From positions 64,001-128,000 of the forward strand of contig JAJYUZ010000004.1 in NCBI GenBank assembly GCA_021792255.1: a DNA stretch of 64,000 nucleotides, written 5' to 3'. Each line of letters starts with the position of its first letter. Within the stretch, counting starts at the first letter, position 1. Below, in pieces: positions 983 through 47,085 of this stretch. The notes below the pieces were generated by a model. That model saw nothing but the letters and a program-made list of their open reading frames with translations, ran no database searches and was not told the DNA's origin. The translations under genes and the position numbers were made by a program. This stretch comes from Thermoplasmata archaeon (GTDB lineage: Archaea; Thermoplasmatota; Thermoplasmata; Thermoplasmatales; GCA-001856825).

Positions 983-2520
983 AAGGTTACGAGACATTCG
1001 CAGATGTCATAAACAGACTTGACCTGCTACCGATATTTGGGAACCCAGGAACGACCGAGCTTAACTCGCTTAAGGCAGTGGATGACTATGTACTAACGCA
1101 GTTTGATGGTCTAGCCGTGGGAATGGCCGATGGTCTCTCTCAATTCTCTTTTCAGCCGCATTTGGTGAACCTGCACACTATACTCGGACTCGGTAACTCG
1201 ATGGCGTACATATACACAGCGAGGATGAACTATTCTCCGGTTATAATAACCGCAGGTCAGCAGGATTTAAGACACATGTCAATGGAGCCGCTGTTATCAG
1301 GTGATCTCCTTGGCTTTATAGGAAATAATGTGAAATTTAAGTACGAGCTAAAGAGTGCATCGGAGATTCCTTCCGTTCTAAGGAGGGCAAAAGTCGAAGC
1401 ACTGACTCCACCAATCGGTCCAGTTTTCGTTTCCATTCCCATGAACGTAATGGATGAGGACTCGTCGTACAGACCACCAGAACCAACCAAAAGAAGTTAC
1501 GAAACGTCGAATGAAGACGCAGTGAATGCGGTCTCGAACCTCCTCAATGAGTCAAGAAATCCTGCGTTGGTATTTGGATGGGAAATAGATCTGTTCGGCG
1601 CGTTCGCAGAAGCTGAGAAAGTCGCTGAAAAATTGGGTTGCCCAGTCTACGGTGAACCGCTCGCTCATCGTTCACCATTTAATTCCACAAGCAAGATGTT
1701 TGGAGGCAACCTGCTTCCTGGGACCACACTAATAAATCTCAAACTGCTCCAGAACGACCTGGTCGTCTTCATAGGAGGAGATGTGACACTTTATCCCTAT
1801 CTCCCTTCCCCACTTCTCGAAGGGAAGAAGGTAGTCTTCGTTGGACTCAACATCAATCCGAAATTCGGTGACTTCTACAGAGCTAACGTGAAGTCATTTC
1901 TTGGTGAACTGGTCGGTAAGATAAGCAAGAAAGGCAATTTCTCGAGGCCAAGTGATTTTCAGATATCCACTAGGATTGCGAACGAAAAGGAAAAGATGGG
2001 TGTCACTTTCGTGATGAGCAGGGTAAAGAAATTGTTCTCGGACTACGTAATAGTCGATGAGGCGATTTCCTCCTCCACTATACTAAGAGATGTACTGGGT
2101 TATTCACCCGGAAGGTACTTCTTTTCCAAGAGTGGTCAACTAGGTTGGGGTTCTCCAGCGGCATCTGGAATTTCAATGAAGACAGAGAAGGTACTAGCTA
2201 TAGTTGGAGAGGGTTCATTCATGTATTCTCTTCAAATCCTCTGGACAGTCCAAAAGTACAACCTTCCTGTCAAATTCCTGATACTGAGAAATGGAGGCTA
2301 TTCCATTCTGAAAAGCTATTCGCTGAGCTATACGCCGGGCATGGAAAAGAAGGACTATTTGAGTTTCGACTTGCCAACTGAGAAATTTGCAGAATCGTTC
2401 AAAATTGAATCTATGGTTGCGGGAAAGGAACTCGACGAGCTAAAATGGTTGAGAGAAGGGAACGATTCAAAGCTCCTAGTGGTGGACGTCGACAGGACGA
2501 TTCCTAAACTGTTCCTATGA
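979..2520 (+). CDS. Thiamine-pyrophosphate-dependent decarboxylase, benzoylformate decarboxylase-like
   Basis: FGNPGTTEL, GMADG, NLHT..GLGN, TAGQQ motifs; TPP motif GEGSFMY...NGGY; overlaps upstream stop. Confidence 0.8.
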   Translation: MKGYETFADVINRLDLLPIFGNPGTTELNSLKAVDDYVLTQFDGLAVGMADGLSQFSFQPHLVNLHTILGLGNSMAYIYTARMNYSPVIITAGQQDLRHMSMEPLLSGDLLGFIGNNVKFKYELKSASEIPSVLRRAKVEALTPPIGPVFVSIPMNVMDEDSSYRPPEPTKRSYETSNEDAVNAVSNLLNESRNPALVFGWEIDLFGAFAEAEKVAEKLGCPVYGEPLAHRSPFNSTSKMFGGNLLPGTTLINLKLLQNDLVVFIGGDVTLYPYLPSPLLEGKKVVFVGLNINPKFGDFYRANVKSFLGELVGKISKKGNFSRPSDFQISTRIANEKEKMGVTFVMSRVKKLFSDYVIVDEAISSSTILRDVLGYSPGRYFFSKSGQLGWGSPAASGISMKTEKVLAIVGEGSFMYSLQILWTVQKYNLPVKFLILRNGGYSILKSYSLSYTPGMEKKDYLSFDLPTEKFAESFKIESMVAGKELDELKWLREGNDSKLLVVDVDRTIPKLFL

Positions 2521-4260
2521 AGTCCAGTTTCTGATCTTCCTGTATTTAGTCATCAGGGAGTTCATCTCATCATCACTCGTTTCACTATCTTCCGGCTCGC
2601 CTTCTATCTTTCTTCTTACCATTTTCGGAAGGTAATCGTCTTCAGCCTTGAGCCCAAACTTCTCATTTAATCTCCTCTTCTCTTGAATAATATTACTTCC
2701 GATCCGCATCATTTCCTCGATCGTATAGTCAAATCCGGTGGAGAGATTCAGGGCTTCAACAACGTCATCTGGACTGATCTTTGCGTACGTACAAATGATA
2801 GCGGAGTTGTAAATTTGTCTATAGTTTTGAGCATTAGCCAAGGTTTGGACTCTCTCTTCTGTGTTTACGATCCATCTGTCTCCGCTCACTATTCCGATCT
2901 GACGATCATCAACTCCCATATCTACCTCAAATATTTCCGCTTGGAGGTGATCCGCCCCTCTCGAAGATGTTGCATAACCAATTCCCTGAAGCTTGAATGC
3001 CCTTGGGTCATGCATGGGTATCTCCATTTTCTTCACAGTGGCGATCTCATCCCTGGGAATTCCTCTTGAAAGTGCAAACCTTTCAAGACCTTTTTTGAGC
3101 GATTCCCCCGCACCTCTAGATTCCGCAATGTCCTCAATTAGTTGCCCGACTCTTTTGAATCCGTCGCCGAAATACCACTTTATCGATGAATCGGTTATCT
3201 TTCCTTCTTTTACAAAGTGATTTAGGGCTGAGATTATTACGCCGGCACTGATAGTATCCATTCCCTTATCGTTTAGCAGATCGTTCCATTCCAGTATGAG
3301 GTCGAAGTCCGTATTTCCAAGCAGGGGGCCGAAGCTTGCGACGGTTTCATATTCGGGACCATCTATCTTTCTGCTGTCTTTCGTTACAGTCCTCCCGCAT
3401 CCTATAACACAATTCGCACAGTGATAGCTCGTCACACTATACACGTCGTGAAATTTCATGGAACTCAAAGAATCATAATCAAAATTGTGATCGCTGAAAT
3501 AGTGGGCTGGGATGTCCCCCATTCCCTGGCCCATATCCATCCAGATCATACTCCCATTGCTCTTCAATCCCTGCGTAAGGGGAGATTCGATCAGATATTT
3601 GGACACTTTTCTAACAAGTTCAAAGTATTTCTTCCTGTCATGAATCGGGACCTGCAGATTTCCCTTTACTACAATCGCTTTAAGATTCTTCGAACCCATT
3701 ACAGCGCCTAATCCAGTCCTGCCAGCCGCTCTTCCTTCGTCATTCATTATTGACGAGAAAAGGACTCTGTTTTCACCAGCTCTACCGATTCCCATCACGC
3801 TATATTTTTTCTCTTTTGTGAGATCTTCTCTAAGAGCGTAGAAATCTTTTCCCCACAAATCCGGTCTCTTTTCAATTTTGACTAACTCGTCAATTTTGAT
3901 TACCTTTGGGGTGTCTGCTCTGCCTTTAATGATTAGACCATCGTAACCCGCCTTTTTGAGTTCATTCCCAAAAAACCCTCCCGAGTTAGCTTCAGCCAAA
4001 AATCCAGTTTGCGGACTCCTAGAGACTATCTCGTGTCGCCCGCTGTTTGGGAAAGGAGTGCCGGTGAGTGGACCAGTCGTCAAGATTAGTAGATTGTCAG
4101 GAGAGAATGGCTCCTGAGAACCGCCAATTTTATTATAAAGTCTTTGTCCGATACCGACTCCGCCCATCCAGTTTCTCCAATCCTCTTCTGACAGAGACTC
4201 GGTCCAGACATCATCTGAGGATAGGTTGACAAATAGAAACCTGTTCCAGTTTCCTTCCAT
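2515..4260 (-). CDS. Aldehyde:ferredoxin oxidoreductase family (W/Mo-pterin)
   Basis: SPQTG, GRAAGRTGLGAVMGSKNLKAI, CxxCxxxC, EYET, DxIS, HDPR motifs. Confidence 0.92.
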   Translation of the reverse strand: MEGNWNRFLFVNLSSDDVWTESLSEEDWRNWMGGVGIGQRLYNKIGGSQEPFSPDNLLILTTGPLTGTPFPNSGRHEIVSRSPQTGFLAEANSGGFFGNELKKAGYDGLIIKGRADTPKVIKIDELVKIEKRPDLWGKDFYALREDLTKEKKYSVMGIGRAGENRVLFSSIMNDEGRAAGRTGLGAVMGSKNLKAIVVKGNLQVPIHDRKKYFELVRKVSKYLIESPLTQGLKSNGSMIWMDMGQGMGDIPAHYFSDHNFDYDSLSSMKFHDVYSVTSYHCANCVIGCGRTVTKDSRKIDGPEYETVASFGPLLGNTDFDLILEWNDLLNDKGMDTISAGVIISALNHFVKEGKITDSSIKWYFGDGFKRVGQLIEDIAESRGAGESLKKGLERFALSRGIPRDEIATVKKMEIPMHDPRAFKLQGIGYATSSRGADHLQAEIFEVDMGVDDRQIGIVSGDRWIVNTEERVQTLANAQNYRQIYNSAIICTYAKISPDDVVEALNLSTGFDYTIEEMMRIGSNIIQEKRRLNEKFGLKAEDDYLPKMVRRKIEGEPEDSETSDDEMNSLMTKYRKIRNWTS

Positions 4261-5697: not shown

Positions 5698-7242
5698 TCA
5701 AGTCGAGTTGCTTTGTCTCAAACTCTTTCTGTTGTTTCGGTAGTAGTCGATGAACTGATGGAATTCTCTTTCGTATAAAGAATTCTCTTCCATGTCTGGT
5801 AGATGATCCACAAAAGGCGCTCCCAGGTCAGAAAGATCGGAAAACTTCAATTTATCTAATCCCACAGCCGAGATCATAGCTGCGCCATTCACGGTCGAGA
5901 ATCTCTGATCACTGACCACCCTTATCTTTCTACCGAGCACGTTCGCAAATATCGTCGCCCTAAGGGAAGACAATGCACCTCCGCCGCTCATGTACAATTC
6001 TTCTATCCTCTTTCCAGTGAATTTTTCGACCGTGTTCAGGAGCCACTTAGAGTTAAGCGCAACTCCTTCCATTGTCGACCTAACGACGTCGGCCTTGTTG
6101 TTTTCCAAGGAAAGATTATAGAAACCTCCTCTGACATATGGATCTTCGATCGGGGCCCTTTCTCCGAACAACCAAGGAAGAAACATAAGGCCCCTAGAAC
6201 CAGGCTCTGACTTAGAGACCAGGTCATCGATGACGGAATACTTATCTTCCCCTGTAATGTTTAAGAGATCTGAGACGAAGTCCATGCTATTACACGCACT
6301 TTCTTGCTCTGCTGCAACGAAGTATTTACCAGTAATTCCGCTTGGAAGGGATGCAACATTATGGAATATGTCAGTTTTTTTGAAAGATACGTGAGAGGTT
6401 ATCCACGATGAGGTACCCAAATAGATGAGAGATTTGTAATCCTCAATGCACCCTGCTCCTATCAATGAACAGGCGACGTCTCCGCAACCCGAAACCACTT
6501 TCACACCTTTCACCCCGAGCTTGGATTCCACCTCTTCCTTCAACGATCCAACCAAATCAGTAGGCTTGATCACTTGAGGAAGTTTTTCCTTTAAAATCCC
6601 AGACATCCTCAGCAATCCGTCGTCGTAGGTCACGTTCCACGGATCTCTGTTGTCCGTCGACCAAAGCAGGGTCAGATTGTCCCAGGAGGCCTTGAAATTT
6701 CCGGTCAGTTTTGCAGCAATGTAATCTTTTGGTTCCAAGAACTTGTACGTCTTTTCATAGATGTCGGGGAGGTTGTGCTTTATGTATAATATATGGGCGA
6801 GAGAATCCTTTCCCGAATGGGCTGGTGCGCCTCCCGTTTTTCTCAACCATTTGATCAGCTTGTCGAGCCTGTATCCAGAAATCGAGGGAAAGCCAGATGT
6901 CAGTTTGCTGATTTCATCGCTACCTCGTGTATCCATCCAAATGATTGCATTGCTGATTGCATCACCGTTTCTGTCCACCGGGACTGTTCCGGACCACTGT
7001 CCCGTCAACCCAATTCCCTTTATCTCTAAGCCGTCAGATTCAGCGACTATTTCTTCCATTCCATCCATCACAGAATTATACCACTCTGCCGGGTTCTGCT
7101 CAGCCTCTCCTCCATTTCCTATTTTAAGGCCGTACTTTCTGGTTACTCTCCCCCTAGTCACCCTTTCCTCGTCGACGAGGGAGATCTTCACAGAAGATGT
7201 TCCGAGATCAATTCCTATAAAAGCATCTTTCATTTTCAACAC
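5698..7242 (-). CDS. FGGY-family carbohydrate kinase (xylulokinase-like)
   Basis: IGIDLGTSSVK, WMDTR, GTS, FLPWLFGERAP, EGVA, SGGGA motifs. Confidence 0.88.
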   Translation of the reverse strand: MLKMKDAFIGIDLGTSSVKISLVDEERVTRGRVTRKYGLKIGNGGEAEQNPAEWYNSVMDGMEEIVAESDGLEIKGIGLTGQWSGTVPVDRNGDAISNAIIWMDTRGSDEISKLTSGFPSISGYRLDKLIKWLRKTGGAPAHSGKDSLAHILYIKHNLPDIYEKTYKFLEPKDYIAAKLTGNFKASWDNLTLLWSTDNRDPWNVTYDDGLLRMSGILKEKLPQVIKPTDLVGSLKEEVESKLGVKGVKVVSGCGDVACSLIGAGCIEDYKSLIYLGTSSWITSHVSFKKTDIFHNVASLPSGITGKYFVAAEQESACNSMDFVSDLLNITGEDKYSVIDDLVSKSEPGSRGLMFLPWLFGERAPIEDPYVRGGFYNLSLENNKADVVRSTMEGVALNSKWLLNTVEKFTGKRIEELYMSGGGALSSLRATIFANVLGRKIRVVSDQRFSTVNGAAMISAVGLDKLKFSDLSDLGAPFVDHLPDMEENSLYEREFHQFIDYYRNNRKSLRQSNST

Positions 7243-7250
7243 TACCCTGT

Positions 7251-8645
7251 CTAATGGCTATAAAGCCATTCAACGACACTCTTCAAGAAGACGTCAGTAG
7301 ATTCCTTCGGCAACACAGAAGCCATCCCATAGATCGGTGCCATCGATGAGGCCTTGACGCTCCCTTTCTTCACCGAGTCCACTGCACCGCTAAGGTCTAT
7401 GACAAATTTCTCCTTAACATCTTCTAAGGTATGCCTGTGAGTAAGAGCAATATGGAATCCTGCAGGATTTGAGAGTCCGTTCAGCATCCATCCCCTCTTC
7501 GACATAGCCTCCCAGACCAGATAAGGGTCGAATTCCCCAGATGATATTGCTATTACCCAGAGCGGATTTCCAATGTACTTGAGTCCTGGAATCTTTTCAA
7601 TAGATTTCTTGATGTAGTCCCCTGCGTCAAGTATCTTCTTTGCTTCTTGAGTGTAACCATTCCTACCCATCAACAGCATGGCGGCCCAAGCAGCCACGAT
7701 AGGGTATCCCGGTCTGCTTCCCAAAAGAGTGGGGGTGAAATATATGCCTCCTTGCCAGGAAGCTGTAGCGTAGATCTGATTTTGGAAATAATCGCCATTC
7801 CTGTACAACACTACAGACGTTCCTTTCGGGGCGTAACCGTACTTATGAGTATCCATCGAAATCGAGGTCACACCGCTGACGGAGAAATCGAAGTCTGGAA
7901 AATCGTAACCAGCATCCCTCACAAACGGATCCATAAATCCTCCCAGACAGGCGTCGACGTGCATCCCTATCTTCTTATCTTCTGCGACTTCCGCCAGTTC
8001 CTCAATCGGATCGAATGTACCGAACGGGAAATTGGGCATAGATCCTACTATTGCGACAGTGTTTCCACTCATCAGTTCCTTTACCATGGCAACGTCTGCT
8101 CTATAATTCTCATCCAGTCCGACTATGACTGGCTTGATAGAGAAATACTCGCACGCTTTCAGAAAGGATGGATGAGCGGTTGATGGCAGAACTATCTCAG
8201 GTTCCGTTATTCCTCTCTTTTTCCTGAAGAAATCCCTGTAGGTCTTCATTGCAAGCAGTATGCTCTCCGTCCCGCCAGATGAAACGGCACCTCTCACACC
8301 ATCGTCACCGTGCATCAGCGATGACGACATGCTGACTATTTCTCTCTCGAATTTCGGAATACTGGGCCAAACATCTGGGTGTAGAGCATTTGTCTGTGAT
8401 ACAAGATGGTATAGTTTCTCGTAGAAAGAAAGTAACGGTTCATCACCATAATAAACTGCCCCTGAAACCTTTCCCTCTTTCCAGGATTGGCTTTCCTTCT
8501 TTGCAAAGCCTGATAAGGTATTTAGCAAGAAATCCTCCCCTAAGCCCTTATCCGGCATCCTGACAAAATTTGATTCGGGTGAGTCGTATGGTTTTAGATC
8601 TTTCTGCAATTCATTTAACACGGAACCAAAATCTATTCCGTTCAT
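7251..8645 (-). CDS. PLP-dependent group II enzyme, sphingosine-1-phosphate lyase-like
   Basis: GKVSGAVY, SGGTESILLA, HVDACLGGF, SISMDTHKYGYAPKG (PLP lysine), GSRPG, APIYG motifs. Confidence 0.85.
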   Translation of the reverse strand: MNGIDFGSVLNELQKDLKPYDSPESNFVRMPDKGLGEDFLLNTLSGFAKKESQSWKEGKVSGAVYYGDEPLLSFYEKLYHLVSQTNALHPDVWPSIPKFEREIVSMSSSLMHGDDGVRGAVSSGGTESILLAMKTYRDFFRKKRGITEPEIVLPSTAHPSFLKACEYFSIKPVIVGLDENYRADVAMVKELMSGNTVAIVGSMPNFPFGTFDPIEELAEVAEDKKIGMHVDACLGGFMDPFVRDAGYDFPDFDFSVSGVTSISMDTHKYGYAPKGTSVVLYRNGDYFQNQIYATASWQGGIYFTPTLLGSRPGYPIVAAWAAMLLMGRNGYTQEAKKILDAGDYIKKSIEKIPGLKYIGNPLWVIAISSGEFDPYLVWEAMSKRGWMLNGLSNPAGFHIALTHRHTLEDVKEKFVIDLSGAVDSVKKGSVKASSMAPIYGMASVLPKESTDVFLKSVVEWLYSH

Positions 8646-42909: not shown

Positions 42910-43944
42910 GTGAATGCTATGGGAATGATGAATACCAGCAAAGTCATGATGATTGCAGTCGTGCTTGTCACCACCTCTTTTGTAATATTATCCGTGCCGG
43001 TCTATGCGCAGGGGGGCACGAATGGGGGGAACTCAGATGCATATGTATGCGCCCATTATTTTTCCCCAGCTCAGGTGTACGACCTGAGCACGTCTACCTG
43101 CACAATTTCTGGTCCAGTAGTGCTTTCTATCGATTCGCCAAGGACCGTTAATTTTCACACAAACATTGTTGTGACCAACGGGGGATCTCTTACAATTCCA
43201 CAAGGTGACTCCTTTTCAATATTAGGGAGCTTCACGATCGGCGGCAATGGACAGCTTCTCTCTGGGGGCAAGTTCGATAACATTGGCTCCACTACAGTGC
43301 AATCAAGCGTGCAGGAAAGCACTGGATATGCTGTTAATTCCATTTTGAACGGAGATGGAGGAGTATTCATTAATCACGGTACTTTGTCTTTAAGTAATTC
43401 ACACGACACTTTCGGTTTTGAGAATTACGGCAGATTTGTAAATCACGGTACAGTTACTATCGACAACACAGACACCCTTGCCTCCACCTATGGTCTAAGT
43501 TTTGGTTTCGTCAATTATGCTGGAACCTTCACGAACTACGGAACGATAACAATCTCAAACACAGGGTTTACCGTTGGCCTGGTGAACGGGCACAAAGCTC
43601 TCCTTAATAACTACGGCACAATCGATATAAGCTCTGGTCTTAATAGCCATGCTGGTCTCTGGAACCAAAACGTCTTCAACAATTATGGGACTGTAACTAT
43701 TACAGGCTGCGGAGGCTATGAGATCTATGAGAATGGGCCTGCTGGTGTAACCATAAACAACTACGGCACAATCATAATAAGCAATAAGGCGAGTTCATCG
43801 CAGATTGACACCGGCATCTATATCCATGCGGGAGATTTCTATAACTACGGATCAATCTACATCTGGGATGCTACCGCTGAAGCTTACGCAGGAACCATTA
43901 CAGAAGTAAACGGAGGCAGTATATCCTATTCTTCTCCACCATAA
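42910..43944 (+). CDS. Secreted beta-helix/adhesin-like protein
   Basis: Signal peptide; many (F/L/I)xN(Y/H)GT(I/V) repeats; rich in G, N, T, S. Confidence 0.7.
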   Translation: MNAMGMMNTSKVMMIAVVLVTTSFVILSVPVYAQGGTNGGNSDAYVCAHYFSPAQVYDLSTSTCTISGPVVLSIDSPRTVNFHTNIVVTNGGSLTIPQGDSFSILGSFTIGGNGQLLSGGKFDNIGSTTVQSSVQESTGYAVNSILNGDGGVFINHGTLSLSNSHDTFGFENYGRFVNHGTVTIDNTDTLASTYGLSFGFVNYAGTFTNYGTITISNTGFTVGLVNGHKALLNNYGTIDISSGLNSHAGLWNQNVFNNYGTVTITGCGGYEIYENGPAGVTINNYGTIIISNKASSSQIDTGIYIHAGDFYNYGSIYIWDATAEAYAGTITEVNGGSISYSSPP

Positions 43945-43975
43945 GTGGAAAAGAAACGCTGTTACCTAATTTGCG

Positions 43976-43991
43976 ATGCGAGCGCCGGGAT
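43976..43991. repeat. att site copy (16-bp direct repeat ATGCGAGCGCCGGGAT of the tRNA-Gly 3' end)
   Basis: Identical to 46138-46153. Confidence 0.9.
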
Positions 43992-44027
43992 ATACGCCTT
44001 TTTGTGTAAATCCCAGGAGGCTCTTGC

Positions 44028-44174
44028 ATGAAGGAAAAATTGCCCTATGCAAGGGTCGCAAGGGAATTAGGGATATCCAAGGATGCAGCTAAGAGACTTT
44101 ACCAGGCTAACAAAGGGGAGTTCCCGTTCGACGAACCCCTAAATTCCGTTGAACTTTTGGGGGTGTGTGAGTGA
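44028..44174 (+). CDS. Small HTH protein (48 aa), excisionase/regulator-like; absent from the ORF track
   Basis: GGAGG RBS; MKEKLPYARVARELGISKDAAKRLYQANKGEFPFDEPLNSVELLGVCE. Confidence 0.7.
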   Translation: MKEKLPYARVARELGISKDAAKRLYQANKGEFPFDEPLNSVELLGVCE

Positions 44175-44223
44175 TGGGCGGATTCAATGAAGAAATTAAT
44201 ACCTGTATCGAAATCTCATCAAT

Positions 44224-44460
44224 GTGGACCAACAGACTAAGAGCAAACCCTCGAGATGGAACTTCCTTACAGTAATCATTTTCGAGCTTGTGTCAGTGGA
44301 CCTCACTATTTATGAAATTTTCGAGAACTTGAAGATATACCCTTCAAATGAGTTCAACGCAACAATTGTAATGATTCTCTCAGTGGTCGTCTTCTTCTTT
44401 CTCTGGTTGATAGGCAGGGAGGCGTTCGAGGTGTTGCTCAAGTTGAGAGAGCAAACGTAG
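44224..44460 (+). CDS. Small two-TM hypothetical protein
   Basis: Two hydrophobic segments; inside the element. Confidence 0.5.
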   Translation: MDQQTKSKPSRWNFLTVIIFELVSVDLTIYEIFENLKIYPSNEFNATIVMILSVVVFFFLWLIGREAFEVLLKLREQT

Positions 44461-44723
44461 TTCATCGAGCTAATTTCGTTTCCATCCCAAGAATCTCTTC
44501 TGAAGATATCTCAACAATCAGAAAAATTGTGACTAAATTTAGGACTTGGTTCTGAAGTTAGAAAAATTCAGGCTTTTCGATATTTCGTATGATCTCTTCT
44601 GTAAGGCCCTCGATCGAGAGATCTCCTGCAGCTGCCCAAAATATCGAGAAAATAGGGCAAAAGAGGTCATTCTGGGGACACTATGACAGGAATATTGGTC
44701 TCTCAGCTCTTCCATCAACTAGT

Positions 44724-44752
44724 ATTCCGAAAACTGATACGTTATTCGGAAT
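44724..44752. repeat. Inverted repeat/hairpin ATTCCGAA-AAC...GTT-A-TTCGGAAT
   Basis: 8-bp perfect inverted repeat plus 3 inner pairs, between convergent ORFs. Confidence 0.5.
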
Positions 44753-44798
44753 CCTCTAGAGAATTTTGAGAGAAATATGTTCAGTTCATTTTTGTATT

Positions 44799-45161
44799 CT
44801 ATTTCATGACGCCTTTGAGTCTTACTGAGTAGATTATCGCAACAATTGCAGATGCTGCTATCAGCGTTATCCAAAGAGCAAGAAGGAAATGTTCCGCACC
44901 GGTGAACCAGTTAGACCAGAATGGCGGGTCGCTTACCACACCGTTCTTGAATTGATTGTAGATAATCCACCAATAGCTGTAGAAGAATCTTTTTACCACA
45001 AGACTTATCCCTGGTGAATATTCGAACACAGTTATTGGGGAAAAGAATCTGAAGAAATATACTCCGAAGGACAAACCAGAAATGTAGAAAATGATAACCG
45101 CTTCAAGTACTACGAAGATCGAGGTCATCTTCACTATTTTACTCTTTCTTTTGTCCATCAT
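44799..45161 (-). CDS. Hypothetical membrane protein
   Basis: N- and C-terminal TM segments; AT-rich TATA-like tract upstream. Confidence 0.6.
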   Translation of the reverse strand: MMDKRKSKIVKMTSIFVVLEAVIIFYISGLSFGVYFFRFFSPITVFEYSPGISLVVKRFFYSYWWIIYNQFKNGVVSDPPFWSNWFTGAEHFLLALWITLIAASAIVAIIYSVRLKGVMK

Positions 45162-45239
45162 TTATTAATCAAGAATGTATATTAATACCTTCTAATAGAC
45201 CTGAATGTGTGAGAGGTTCGTAGACGCGGAGTCATAAGC

Positions 45240-46157
45240 ATGCAGGAGTTCCGGATATGGGCAGTTGGCTCTGGAAGATTTGCATTTTCTACAGTAGAGA
45301 GACAGGTCCGGAAGCTGCGTTTCATGTCAAGGCACTTCGACTTACTGGACCCATCCATGACAGACCTCTACAAATACATCAACGAAGAGTTGAGGAGGGG
45401 CAAGAAAAGAAAATCCCTCAACAACGAGATGAAGGACCTGAAGGCCTGGTGCGAGTTCAACAAGATCGTTATGGATTTCCCCAAGTTCAAGAGGGAACCG
45501 TCGCCGGAGCCGTGGATCCCTACCGACGACGATATCGACAGAGTCCTTGCCTATTGCGACAGGATGAAGGTGAGGTCGATAGGCATCAGGAACAAGGCCT
45601 TCTTCTCCGTCCTGATCTACGGAGGTCTGAGGATCGGCGAGATGCAGAAGCTCAACGTCGAGGATATCAGGGACATCGGCCTCTACGTGAGGAGCGAGAA
45701 ACTTGAGAAGGACAGGACCATAGGCCTTCCTGACGATGTCATTTCGCTATTGAAACTGTATATCAGGGACCACAGGACCGATAGTGACCCCAAGGTCCTG
45801 TTCACCACTCCGAAGGGAAGGATGACTTATCAATATATGAGAAACGTCGTTTACAAGGCCGGACACTCCCTCGGTATCCCGCAACTGCACCCTCATTCGT
45901 TCAGGCATTATTGCGCAACTTCTCTCTTGCGGGGCTATAGGGGCCTTCCTGGAATAGATGTAAGAGAGGTGCAAATCCACTTGGGGCATGCCCGCTTGGA
46001 GACGACTGCTATATATACCCACATATCACAGGCGAGCGTGGCAGGAAAGGTGAACGGCGTATACAACGCCAGGTTTCGGAAAGAGGTCGATGAAATCATG
46101 ACAGGGTCAAAAAGAATCGAATCCGACCATGCACTTCATGCGAGCGCCGGGATTTGA
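45240..46157 (+). CDS. Tyrosine recombinase/integrase
   Basis: Catalytic set R (GLRIGE), K, HSFRH, LGH, Y (TAIYTH) intact; stop codon lies in the antisense tRNA. Confidence 0.95.
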   Translation: MQEFRIWAVGSGRFAFSTVERQVRKLRFMSRHFDLLDPSMTDLYKYINEELRRGKKRKSLNNEMKDLKAWCEFNKIVMDFPKFKREPSPEPWIPTDDDIDRVLAYCDRMKVRSIGIRNKAFFSVLIYGGLRIGEMQKLNVEDIRDIGLYVRSEKLEKDRTIGLPDDVISLLKLYIRDHRTDSDPKVLFTTPKGRMTYQYMRNVVYKAGHSLGIPQLHPHSFRHYCATSLLRGYRGLPGIDVREVQIHLGHARLETTAIYTHISQASVAGKVNGVYNARFRKEVDEIMTGSKRIESDHALHASAGI

Positions 46158-46211
46158 ACCCGAGGCATGAGCTTGGCAAGCTCACGTGTTACCAGGCTAC
46201 ACCACGCTCGC
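46139..46211 (-). tRNA. tRNA-Gly (GCC)
   Basis: GCGAGCG...CGCTCGC-A; anticodon arm TGAGC-TTGCCAA-GCTCA. Confidence 0.96.
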
Positions 46212-46340
46212 TAAGCACCCTATGACTACCATGATAAAAAACTAACCTATCTACACGAAATAATGGCTGTGCGGTTAGCTGTCAACATAGAACTCCTCAA
46301 ACTAAACACATTCTTTATACCGACCGCAGGATACAGTTCC

Positions 46341-46415
46341 GGGCCCGTGGGGTAGTTTGGATCATCCTTTTGGCCTTCGGAGCCGACGACCCGGGTTCAA
46401 ATCCCGGCGGGCCCG
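46341..46415 (+). tRNA. tRNA-Arg (TCG)
   Basis: GGGCCCG...CGGGCCC-G; anticodon arm TTGGC-CTTCGGA-GCCGA; TTTATA box about 25 nt upstream. Confidence 0.96.
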
Positions 46416-47085
46416 TCCATTATTGGAGAGATATAGAACATCACTTTTTGCCCTTTCAAAAATCCCCTTACTTTTATCACATCCTTTTAAAACAAGGCAA
46501 TTTCACGTTCCGTAGAATACTATTTCACTTCTTCAAAGTTCAGTCGCTATATTTTGAGACTGGCTCGTTGAGAACCTTAACCGCCTGCCTTTTCGAATTC
46601 AAGGTGTGTTTCCATTCATATGGTTAATCGGGCTCCGTCCAGGATTCTTTTGCAACAAACTACATCTATTTCTTTTCTGGCTGTTACGAATGAGGGTGCT
46701 TCCAGAGGACTTCGCCGCTCTCTCTGACGCAGCATTGCACTGTCTCTTCATAGCCCTGTCCCCTGGTCGGGAAGATGCCAATCTTGAAACACCAGATCCC
46801 ATCCTCGTTCCTCGATTCGTAGACCTCTACACTTTCGATTCCGAAGAGAGATCTCATTTTGTTTCTCATAACCGACTCAGACCATTTTGAACTAGATGGT
46901 ATCTCTTCCATTTTCCTTGTTTTAATGTAATTTGATTCTTAACATTTTCTCAAGACTGAATGTACTACCTGCAAAGCACTGAAGCATATCACTGGATTGC
47001 CCCTTTCGAGTCTACGGTGCGGCAATAACTAGGGTATATTTCTAAGTCTACGTATGCACATGACCACAGAGAATGCTCTGTCCCT

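Follow-up and report, generated by a model that had tools for sequence, protein, structure and literature searches.

An integrated element at a tRNA-Gly gene

The 64,000-nucleotide stretch of DNA analysed here (the window) carries at positions 43976-46153 an integrated, stripped-down integrative element of an acid-mine archaeon of the Thermoplasmatales, which is plasmid- or provirus-like and has a length of ~2.2 kb. The element is bounded by a 16-nt direct repeat, ATGCGAGCGCCGGGAT, the two copies of which, at 43976-43991 (attL core, a copy of the tRNA-Gly 3' end) and 46138-46153 (attR core), are 100% identical. ARAGORN places the integration target, a tRNA-Gly(gcc) gene that is reconstituted intact, at 46139-46211 on the minus strand, so that the right repeat consists of the tRNA 3' end plus one base. 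An earlier note on this DNA had described 16-bp repeats, the right one at the tRNA-Gly 3' end and inside the integrase ORF, and both the coordinates and the identity are borne out. Only the shortness of the repeat speaks for a chance match with no element at the locus. When up to two mismatches are allowed, however, the repeat occurs at just two sites in the window, while 100 shuffles of the window give an expectation of 0.00; moreover, it is the exact tRNA 3' end and abuts the integrase gene, and homologous elements share this layout. We have rejected the chance-match reading on the basis of the shuffles, and give it next to no probability.

The left core is followed by a P' arm (43992-44027, plus strand) that supplies a 12-residue integrase tail, YAFLCKSQEALA, in the circular form as well as the GGAGG ribosome-binding site of a small gene; this assignment is based on the in-silico junction and on 85% DNA identity to a contiguous metagenomic relative (L047, below). 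The small gene itself (44028-44174, plus strand) encodes a 48-aa, three-helix and weakly HTH-like protein, as judged from profile HMM matches, alignment A3 and an AF2 model. Two cargo ORFs of 78 aa (44224-44460, plus strand) and 120 aa (44799-45161, minus strand) resemble membrane proteins by hydropathy, the former being hydrophobic and the latter probably a membrane protein, and neither has a Pfam or PHROG match. A divergent, A+T-rich intergenic region with TATA-like stretches (45162-45239, plus strand) is presumably the promoter of the tyrosine integrase gene, which occupies 45240-46157 on the plus strand and encodes a protein of 305 aa when the element is integrated.

Pfam and PHROG searches revealed no replication gene in the 2.2-kb element, in agreement with the earlier view of a minimal or deleted element. 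Related elements carry an MCM helicase and a resolvase (L052), a DNA methylase (L060) or a DpdA-like gene (L059), and the integration module is kept across the family while the cargo is variable. Because the MCM helicase, methylase and other cargo of the relatives are absent here, the copy in the window represents a minimal or deleted form, and, having no replication gene, it would be either a deletion derivative or reliant on other elements.

The integrase

The integrase matches Pfam Phage_integrase (PF00589) over residues 95-264 with a score of 102.3 bits (cut-off 27.1, E 3.2e-29) and the PHROG integrase families with an E-value of 2.9e-35; besides PF00589, the Pfam matches listed at E-values up to 0.1 comprise only one to S1_2, which is below threshold. 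Residues R131, K154, H219, R222, H250 and Y259 are invariant when 12 homologues are aligned, and we take them to be the catalytic R-K-H-R-H/W-Y positions of a tyrosine recombinase. In the integrated form the protein ends ...HASAGI*, and the att core and the antisense tRNA provide its last six codons and stop, the TGA lying inside the latter. Since the 305-aa ORF retains every catalytic residue, the claim that all of them survive integration, unlike the case of SSV-type splitting, is upheld. An integrase paralogue on contig C7 of the same genome is accompanied by neither a small gene nor an attL repeat of at least 14 nt.

The attP junction and the integrase tail

Joining the ends of the element in silico extends the integrase by 12 residues to 317 aa, so that it ends ...HASAGIYAFLCKSQEALA* and its TGA overlaps the ATG of the 48-aa ORF (ATGA), with GGAGG located 7 nt upstream of the ATG. 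The 317-aa circular form and the TGA/ATG overlap proposed previously are therefore reproducible. That this junction corresponds to a real attP gains support from a 1653-bp metagenome contig (L047), in which an integrase gene with 78% DNA identity, the core, and a homologue of window positions 43976-44029 (85% identity) form one contiguous stretch; an 81%-identical integrase is present elsewhere in the attP configuration.

The exchange of the integrase tail is probably without consequence for the enzyme, the tail being a passenger, because the tails are unconserved and the preceding region of the integrase (residues 278-305) has pLDDT values below 50. Tails of the attP form have no common sequence beyond the part imposed by the ribosome-binding site and differ in every lineage, and those of integrated forms comprise between 0 and ~25 extra residues, set only by which tRNA is read backwards. 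The C-terminal segment of a tyrosine recombinase subunit is known to act on its neighbours in trans, and the reading frame continues through att in nearly every family member, as might be expected if the 317-aa circular and 305-aa integrated forms differed in activity, specificity or stability. A precedent for such a functional switch is phage Mx8, in which attP lies inside int and the new 3' end acquired on integration alters the behaviour of the enzyme, according to the excerpted text of PMC6070905. The variability of both kinds of tail, the predicted disorder of the 28 preceding residues and the small size of the change, which amounts to only 12 residues here, nevertheless make a tail-based switch very improbable, and the importance that the earlier note attached to the tail swap is unlikely to lie in the peptide.

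Integrase ends and junctions across the family

A search with the single protein sequence gave no close integrase relatives in metagenome contigs or viral contigs; relatives were then found by an alignment query, and a search of genome contigs with the closer alignment A2 yielded 8 loci. The homologue set, defined by at least 35% identity, comprises 50 integrases, of which 4 are cut by a contig end and 46 have a 3' end. In 33 of these 46, the ORF terminates in or at an antisense tRNA, which was recognised with ARAGORN or Rfam, from a T-loop motif, or because the tail is identical to that of such a locus; another 11 continue directly into a small-gene homologue, and the remaining 2 are unclear. 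The integrase stop lies no more than 16 nt from the small-gene start in 15 of 17 non-redundant contiguous junctions. An exact ATGA overlap is seen in 8 of the 17 (L035, L040, L142, L048, L051, L052, L059, L060) and a 7-nt overlap in two (L151, L155), with offsets of -13 (L130), -15 (L025), -16 (L126), +2 (L163) and +14 (L049) elsewhere; the two outliers, at +37 (L159) and -70 (L148), are not coupled. The att position and the coupling to the small gene, which the earlier note had proposed to check in homologous integrases, are thus conserved.

Other complete integrated elements have the same layout. One such element of 8.6 kb lies at a tRNA-Met gene (L072) and another of ~10 kb, in Thermogymnomonas acidicola JCM 13583, at a tRNA-Pro gene (L132), both with 16-bp repeats and with the 36-38 nt spacing between core and small-gene start that is also found in the window. 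The ATGA is present when the junction of the T. acidicola element is reconstructed, although its integrase and small gene have to be read with frameshifts at homopolymer runs. Cuniculiplasma sp. SKW4 contains a full-length integrase homologue at a tRNA-Met gene and a separate match to the small gene. In a tree of 33 integrases, the attP and tRNA forms are interleaved, with six near-sister pairs. Moreover, bases 1-974 of the attP-type locus L048 are 100% identical to contig G006:C21, which represents the attR side, and bases 948-1610 are 99.7% identical to G006:C6, which represents the attL side. Judged by these matches, a family member of the L048 type is represented as attL, attR and attP.

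Terminal overlap, as a sign of circularity, was found in none of the 15 contigs tested. Tandem integration is another source of attP-like junctions, and the loci L126 and L129 are separated by ~35 kb within a single chromosomal contig of 556 kb; an attP-like junction in a contig is therefore no proof of an episome.

The small gene and its product

A profile search detects the small gene in 35 of 168 genomes of the order, compared with 2 of 168 when a single sequence is used. It is located 40-70 nt downstream of a core resembling a tRNA 3' end in nearly all of the 30 loci examined, and almost never away from an att core in these loci. The 35 clusters of the protein family are all annotated as "hypothetical protein" or unnamed.

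The AF2 model of the small protein is a three-helix structure with a pLDDT of 84.8. The best Pfam match, HTH_23 (E 0.009, 16.2 bits versus a cut-off of 24.6), is below threshold and is seen in 1 of 12 family members; none of the 12 members matches a Pfam family at threshold, and there is no match in PHROG. A Foldseek search returned no fold at an E-value of 0.001 or better, the weak matches including a mycobacteriophage Xis (E ~6) as well as HTH domains, and the neighbours of the protein in the Atlas are HTH-like at 0.76-0.82, which provides a lead only. Hence, of the previously proposed 48-aa HTH gene, the gene, its ATGA and its GGAGG ribosome-binding site stand, but the HTH label is weak. 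The small protein may act as a recombination accessory or directionality factor, or may regulate the module.

A module severed by integration

Our preferred explanation, to which we assign a probability of roughly 0.7, is that a family of Thermoplasmatales elements shares a module in which the integrase gene is followed by the att core and then by the small gene, and that integration cuts this pair. The att core, a copy of the tRNA 3' end, sits within the last codons of the integrase gene, and in the attP form the integrase frame crosses the core and a short, unconserved tail to stop on, or a few bases from, the start of a gene encoding 45-57 aa. This gene has its own GGAGG-type ribosome-binding site, and the two genes are predicted to form a translationally coupled pair. 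Integration at the tRNA gene severs the pair, leaving an integrase that keeps all catalytic residues and ends in the antisense tRNA, and placing the small gene at the opposite end of the element, next to attL on its inner side. The tail would then exist because the frame must stay open to the start of the partner gene, and the conserved feature, as far as the compared loci indicate, is the predicted operon spanning attP rather than the tail. If synthesis of the small protein is tied to that of the integrase only in the circular state, each recombination event would reset the ratio of integrase to small protein.

The overlap of stop and start might instead reflect ordinary tight gene packing, with the integrase gene and its neighbour merely flanking attP and no regulation dependent on the state of the element. 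ATGA is found at the start codon of 539 of 1230 ORFs of at least 150 aa in this genome (44%), so that the ATGA pattern in attL-type loci is weak evidence when taken alone; the small gene could be translated independently given its own Shine-Dalgarno-like site; and two of the junctions are uncoupled. This interpretation is nevertheless unlikely, given that the pairing persists across at least 6 att specificities and varied cargo, that the small gene keeps so closely to the att core, and that 7-nt ATGN-stop overlaps are present at 7 of 24 loci compared to 4.4% in the control. We therefore retain the severed module as the best explanation, and reading its integration-dependent uncoupling as a regulatory switch is plausible from the arrangement of the genes. 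A more specific version is that att is embedded in a coupled pair of integrase and directionality factor whose ratio is set by topology, both proteins being made together from the circle and integrase alone from the integrated element, which would give a self-resetting or bistable control of direction needing no separate regulatory circuit. This version is tentative, and we think it rather doubtful.

State of the copy in the window

The stretch is present in 11 sequencing runs from 3 studies. Contigs of these three studies contain the element in its integrated form only, with 0 differences, and comparison of 4 runs revealed neither a junction of the circle or of the empty site nor a skip or back joint in contigs, which drop rare variants. 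The attP junction that the earlier note had proposed to look for in reads of this element was thus not recovered from contigs, where rare junctions drop out. An empty site in relatives was likewise not shown: among 18 genomes of the genus, 3 contain the hydrolase gene of the right flank, with an alignment confined to this gene, and synteny of the flank is thus not conserved.

It is conceivable, perhaps even a serious contender, although we incline against it, that the architecture is real and that the copy in the window is an immobile remnant, deleted and fixed in the chromosome, in which the integrase and small genes have not yet decayed. Its length of only 2.2 kb, without a replication or transfer gene, is consistent with this possibility, as are the identical integrated form in all three studies with no excision joint, the larger size of relatives (8.6 to ~35 kb, with MCM and other genes), and the decayed copies that are common in the family, which include integrase fragments beside tRNAs and the frameshifted or interrupted loci L072, L132 and L155. 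On the other hand, the cores are identical at 16 of 16 positions, the integrase is full-length with all catalytic residues, the small gene is preserved together with its ribosome-binding site and the ATGA register, and the 81%-identical integrase occurs elsewhere in the attP configuration.

Comparison with known integration systems

The arrangement is intermediate between the SSV-type and pNOB8-type classes of archaeal integrases and recalls the IntP/IntX pair of phage Mx8. SSV-type ("suicidal", type I) systems are described in the excerpts of PMC8371274 as archaeal, targeting tRNA genes, and having attP within the integrase ORF in a compact int-att module. The element in the window is also archaeal, targets a tRNA gene and has its att core inside the integrase ORF, but SSV-type integration divides the gene into two inactive pieces, one N-terminal and one C-terminal, whereas the protein remains whole here, the site lying in a dispensable 3' end. 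[quoted passage not shown] Membership of the SSV type was rejected given the lack of PF16795 and the catalytic residues that are intact after integration. In pNOB8-type ("classical", type II) systems, integration leaves the integrase gene whole and next to the restored tRNA gene (excerpts of PMC3293823 and PMC8371274), as it does here. The attP site of this type is, however, described in those excerpts as separate from the integrase gene, in contrast to a core within the ORF, and the integrase and tRNA genes in PMC3293823 share a strand, unlike the convergent and overlapping pair in the window.

Mx8 IntP/IntX, which the earlier note did not mention, is a closer precedent than integration-dependent immunity. 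The C-terminal piece exchanged in Mx8 is reportedly much larger, with altered behaviour of the enzyme. In this Myxococcus phage, attP is inside the integrase coding sequence, and the gene acquires a different 3' end on integration, which does not inactivate the enzyme (excerpted text of PMC6070905); the Islander paper (PMC4383910) likewise lists Mx8 and SSV integrases as extending across attP. Mx8 differs in being bacterial, and the excerpts of PMC6070905 describe no coupled downstream gene across attP. Integration replaces the integrase 3' end in a similar manner here (305 vs 317 aa), and both forms are seen among the sequences of relatives.

In the retroregulation of phage lambda, an int-distal control element, sib, lies beyond attP, and integration removes it from the int transcript; sib is, however, an RNA processing site rather than a coupled protein-coding gene. 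Retroregulation by sib is mentioned in PMC2951348. The pleolipovirus SNJ2 has an integrase with small, overlapping and co-transcribed Orf2 and Orf3, one of them DNA-binding; Int suffices for excision, and integration is promoted by the accessories, according to the excerpts of PMC5861418. An archaeal integrase with a small overlapping partner gene is common to both by that description, although in SNJ2 the accessories are described as upstream of int and linked to it after integration, with att downstream of int, whereas the partner is downstream and across att in the present family. Mycobacteriophage BPs has attP inside its repressor gene, and integration yields a shortened, stable repressor (excerpts of PMC4557955). 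The resemblance to integration-dependent immunity suggested by the earlier note holds for the topology, in that an attP inside a gene allows integration to change the gene product, but it is topological only because the BPs attP sits in the repressor gene; the gene concerned here is that of the integrase, and the small gene, which begins 36 nt past the core, is complete and has the same sequence in either state.

Significance

We found no account of an operon of this kind (integrase, att, small gene) for Thermoplasmatales in the main texts of the literature searched. Archaeal integrases are now divided into two kinds, namely those whose own gene is destroyed on integration and those whose gene is clear of att. 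The Thermoplasmatales family falls in between, its att site lying inside the gene but in a dispensable tail, where it comes between the integrase gene and its conserved, overlapping partner. Were the partner a directionality factor, the element would sense and remember its integration by gene topology alone, and the coupled pair would represent an archaeal integration module of a third class, in addition to the suicidal and classical ones. Exchange of the integrase 3' end together with the core would then allow the target tRNA to change rapidly, as loci L052, L053 and L054 suggest. At ~1.2 kb the module is compact, and it is found with many tRNA specificities; it might also yield, as a by-product, a tool for site-specific integration in acidophilic archaea.

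Structure of the integrated element

Integration of the 2.2-kb element at the tRNA-Gly gene separates an integrase and a small gene that overlap translationally when the element ends are joined. The element is bounded by an exact 16-nt direct repeat (43976-43991 and 46138-46153), the core, whose right copy is the 3' end of tRNA-Gly(gcc) on the minus strand (46139-46211); allowing up to two mismatches, there is no third copy in the window, and chance would be expected to supply none. The integrase ORF (45240..46157, 305 aa) matches Pfam Phage_integrase (E 3.2e-29) as well as PHROG integrase families, and in the integrated form it terminates as ...HASAGI*, the stop codon falling within the antisense tRNA; integration leaves it catalytically complete. 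When the ends are joined in silico, the frame continues to ...HASAGIYAFLCKSQEALA*, the TGA of which overlaps the ATG of a 48-aa ORF (44028..44174, plus strand), the small gene, with GGAGG at 7 nt upstream of its start. Repeats, tRNA 3' end, integrase and ATGA overlap are all as the earlier note described them. Two hydrophobic ORFs of 78 and 120 aa make up the other cargo and have no family match in Pfam or PHROG; no replication gene is found in the element, and the window's copy is a minimal or deleted family member. The G+C content is 51-52% in the integrase half, 38-42% in the remainder of the element, and about 44-46% in the flanks. A short inverted repeat, formed by GGGAT in the core and ATCCC directly before the ribosome-binding site (43985-43991 and 44011-44015), could be a protein-binding site; by eye, several relatives carry a similar GAATC/AAATCC motif 10-12 nt upstream of the ribosome-binding site.

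Integrase 3' ends across the family

Searches of the genus and order, of metagenomes (the best 80 of 224 relatives) and of named genomes gave 50 integrase homologues with at least 35% identity, four of which are cut off by a contig end. An antisense tRNA forms the integrase end (in or at it) in 33 of the 46 homologues with the 3' end present, part of this class being assigned by a custom T-loop motif or because the tail exactly matches that of a locus where a tRNA was called; a small-gene homologue directly follows the integrase in 11, and the 3' end is ambiguous in two (L061 and L069). The targets are tRNAs for Pro, Met, Lys, Ile, Arg and Gly, together with an intron-bearing tRNA, judged to be so from its 141-nt length, that is the target of one integrase lineage (L070 8890-9030, L033 1146-1286 and L071 1607-1747) and was found by Rfam and missed by ARAGORN. 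In two more distant loci (L029 and L030, about 30% identity), the integrase stops before reaching the tRNA.

Three metagenome contigs (L052, L053 and L054) carry integrase genes that are 97-99% identical over the first 900 nt and differ only at the 3' end, the first having an attP-like end whose core resembles tRNA-Ile, another being inserted at tRNA-Ile and the third at tRNA-Pro, a pattern that suggests target switching via exchange of the att-bearing 3' end. The window's own genome has a second family integrase (G000:C7:260847-261812, 43% identity), which runs about 50 nt into an antisense tRNA-Pro(tgg); neither an attL repeat of at least 14 nt nor a small gene was found at this locus, which has host translation-factor genes within 10 kb upstream and is probably a decayed element. 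Many integrase fragments in the relatives' genomes G006-G023 retain the C-terminal part only (residues about 175-300), several of them adjoining tRNA genes, and are likely to be remains of elements that inserted at these tRNAs before.

Joined and integrated states in relatives

The attP reconstruction is supported by relatives. L047 is a 1653-bp metagenome contig with 78% identity to window 45246-46153 followed by an unbroken 85% match to 43976-44029; its integrase tail, ...HASAGIYAFMDKSQGAFA, equals the predicted circular tail at 8 of 12 residues, and the contig terminates at the ATG of the small gene. In L048, bases 1-974 are 100% identical to the integrase/attR side on one contig of a relative's genome (G006:C21) and bases 948-1610 are 99.7% identical to the attL/small-gene side on a second (G006:C6), so that all three junctions, attR, attL and attP, are observed for a single family member. 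When 33 integrase bodies are placed in a tree, built on the first 275 residues only with tails excluded, attP-type and tRNA-type copies are near-sisters, interleaved at six places.

Two complete integrated elements have the window's layout, with 16-bp repeats and 36-38 nt from core to small gene start: L072 (8.6 kb, tRNA-Met), the integrase of which has an internal stop, and L132 from T. acidicola (about 10 kb, tRNA-Pro), which shows homopolymer frameshifts. An integrase ending in an attP-like junction followed by a small gene (L126) and one ending in tRNA-Pro (L129) are separated by about 35 kb on a single 556-kb contig (JAJZZX010000001.1) and form a tandem array of two elements; given this pair, an attP-like junction is no proof of an episome. 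None of the 15 contigs tested is circular.

Coupling of the integrase and the small gene

The earlier note had also proposed that the integrase is coupled to the small gene across att, and relatives support this: in their junctions the integrase stop lies near the small gene start. Among 17 non-redundant contiguous junctions, eight have the exact ATGA overlap (L035, L040, L142, L048, L051, L052, L059 and L060). Two more overlap by 7 nt (L151 and L155), others have offsets of -13 (L130), -15 (L025), -16 (L126), +2 (L163) and +14 (L049), and the outliers stand at +37 (L159) and -70 (L148). A GGAGG-like site precedes nearly all small-gene starts. ATGA by itself is not rare, occurring in 539 of 1230 control ORFs of this genome; enrichment is seen for ATGN-stop overlaps, with 7 of 24 loci versus 54 of 1230 control ORFs. 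The scripted ATGA count of 13 is an upper bound, as one of these loci (L158) lacks a ribosome-binding site and ATGs bearing the pattern were preferred by the script.

A profile search for the small gene was positive in 35 of the 168 genomes of the order. In a survey seeded from the small gene, an integrase 3' end is closely upstream in 10 of 30 loci; the other 20 have none, including four with less than 260 nt upstream that are not judgeable. Nearly all 30 have, 40-70 nt upstream, a G+C-rich stretch that looks like the 3' end of an antisense tRNA, which is what either attP or attL should show. On a 4623-bp contig (L025, G006:C71), a 5'-truncated tRNA-Gly-type integrase (86% amino acid identity, residues 211-305), a core and a homologue of the small gene form one unbroken stretch that adjoins a SnoaL-like host gene, the orthologue of a gene beside the tRNA-Pro integrase on G000:C7; this locus is an attP-type junction fossilised within or beside another element.

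Conserved and variable parts

Cargo is variable: L052 carries an MCM helicase and a resolvase, L060 a DNA methylase and L059 a DpdA-like gene. L072 has a group II intron, represented by a reverse transcriptase/maturase in two ORFs, and an IS with a DDE transposase (1987-3287 and 6474-7895). The attP-form tails differ in each lineage except for the last few codons, which are alike because the ribosome-binding site dictates them, and integrated-form tails are determined only by which tRNA is read backwards. Since the tails are variable, and residues 265-273 and 278-305 of the integrase AF2 model have pLDDT <50, the peptide is most simply a passenger, and the exchange of tails is unlikely to be what matters. 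What is conserved is a reading frame kept open through att, together with the overlap of stop and start codons.

The small protein has 45-57 aa in this family, with M1 and P37 invariant and a conserved C-terminus, ...LLEVLE. An AF2 model computed with 12 sequences has three helices (mean pLDDT 84.8). Foldseek gives no match at E ≤0.001 in PDB or BFVD; most of its weak rows are helix-turn-helix (HTH) domains, and a few are excisionases. No member reaches threshold in Pfam. Atlas neighbours, a lead only, are HTH-like at 0.76-0.82. An HTH identity is plausible. The family forms 35 clusters among 5.8 billion proteins, most nameless and the rest all called 'hypothetical protein'. Across changes of cargo and target the gene remains associated with integrase and att, which suggests that it acts in recombination or in the control of recombination and not in replication.

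Proposed mechanism and known systems

In the circular state, ribosomes ending the integrase would reinitiate on the small gene, so that both proteins are made together. Once integrated, the integrase would be expressed alone from the A+T-rich region 45162-45239, and the small gene would rely on transcription coming in from host DNA; on the same strand it is preceded by a 344-aa ORF (42910..43944). Promoters acting across the circular junction are known from Tn916 and ICEclc.

A review distinguishes suicidal archaeal tyrosine recombinases, with att within a gene that is split, from classical ones whose gene stays intact (PMC8371274), and the pNOB8 type is described with attP apart from the integrase gene (PMC3293823). 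The present family shares one defining feature with each of the suicidal and classical types and lacks another. Closest in kind is bacterial Mx8, where attP lies within int and integration creates a new 3' end (PMC6070905, PMC4383910). The nearest archaeal functional precedent is SNJ2, for which PMC5861418 reports that Int alone excises and that two small co-transcribed proteins favour integration. Lambda sib (PMC2951348) and BPs-type immunity (PMC4557955) are topological analogies, not memberships. No account of an integrase-att-small gene arrangement in Thermoplasmatales was found in the literature searched. The reverse function, an excision factor preventing an element that has just left the chromosome from re-entering it, would fit the topology as well as SNJ2-like promotion of integration. 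The recombination-driven switch of the earlier note is a reasonable hypothesis, and we put the probability that the module is a true directionality switch at roughly 0.3.

Host and population

The window corresponds to G000:C11:64001-128000 of a 1.59-Mb genome, and the named relatives in which integrase homologues occur belong to the Thermoplasmatales (Cuniculiplasma sp. SKW4, Thermogymnomonas acidicola JCM 13583 and several MAGs). DNA contigs of three studies place the stretch in mine-drainage, sediment and mine-tailings metagenomes. Over 43400-46800 these contigs bridge host flank to element and integrase to tRNA without differences, and none has a joint skipping the element or closing a circle, rare forms being beyond what contigs can show. 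Relatives yielded no empty tRNA-Gly site, as they do not share synteny with the window here. One contig (run X5) matches the window from 44165 on and differs upstream, where, read by eye, the coding sequence of a different small-protein variant ends (...GEALLKG then CE*); a related element seems, from this match, to share DNA downstream of 44165 with the window's element.
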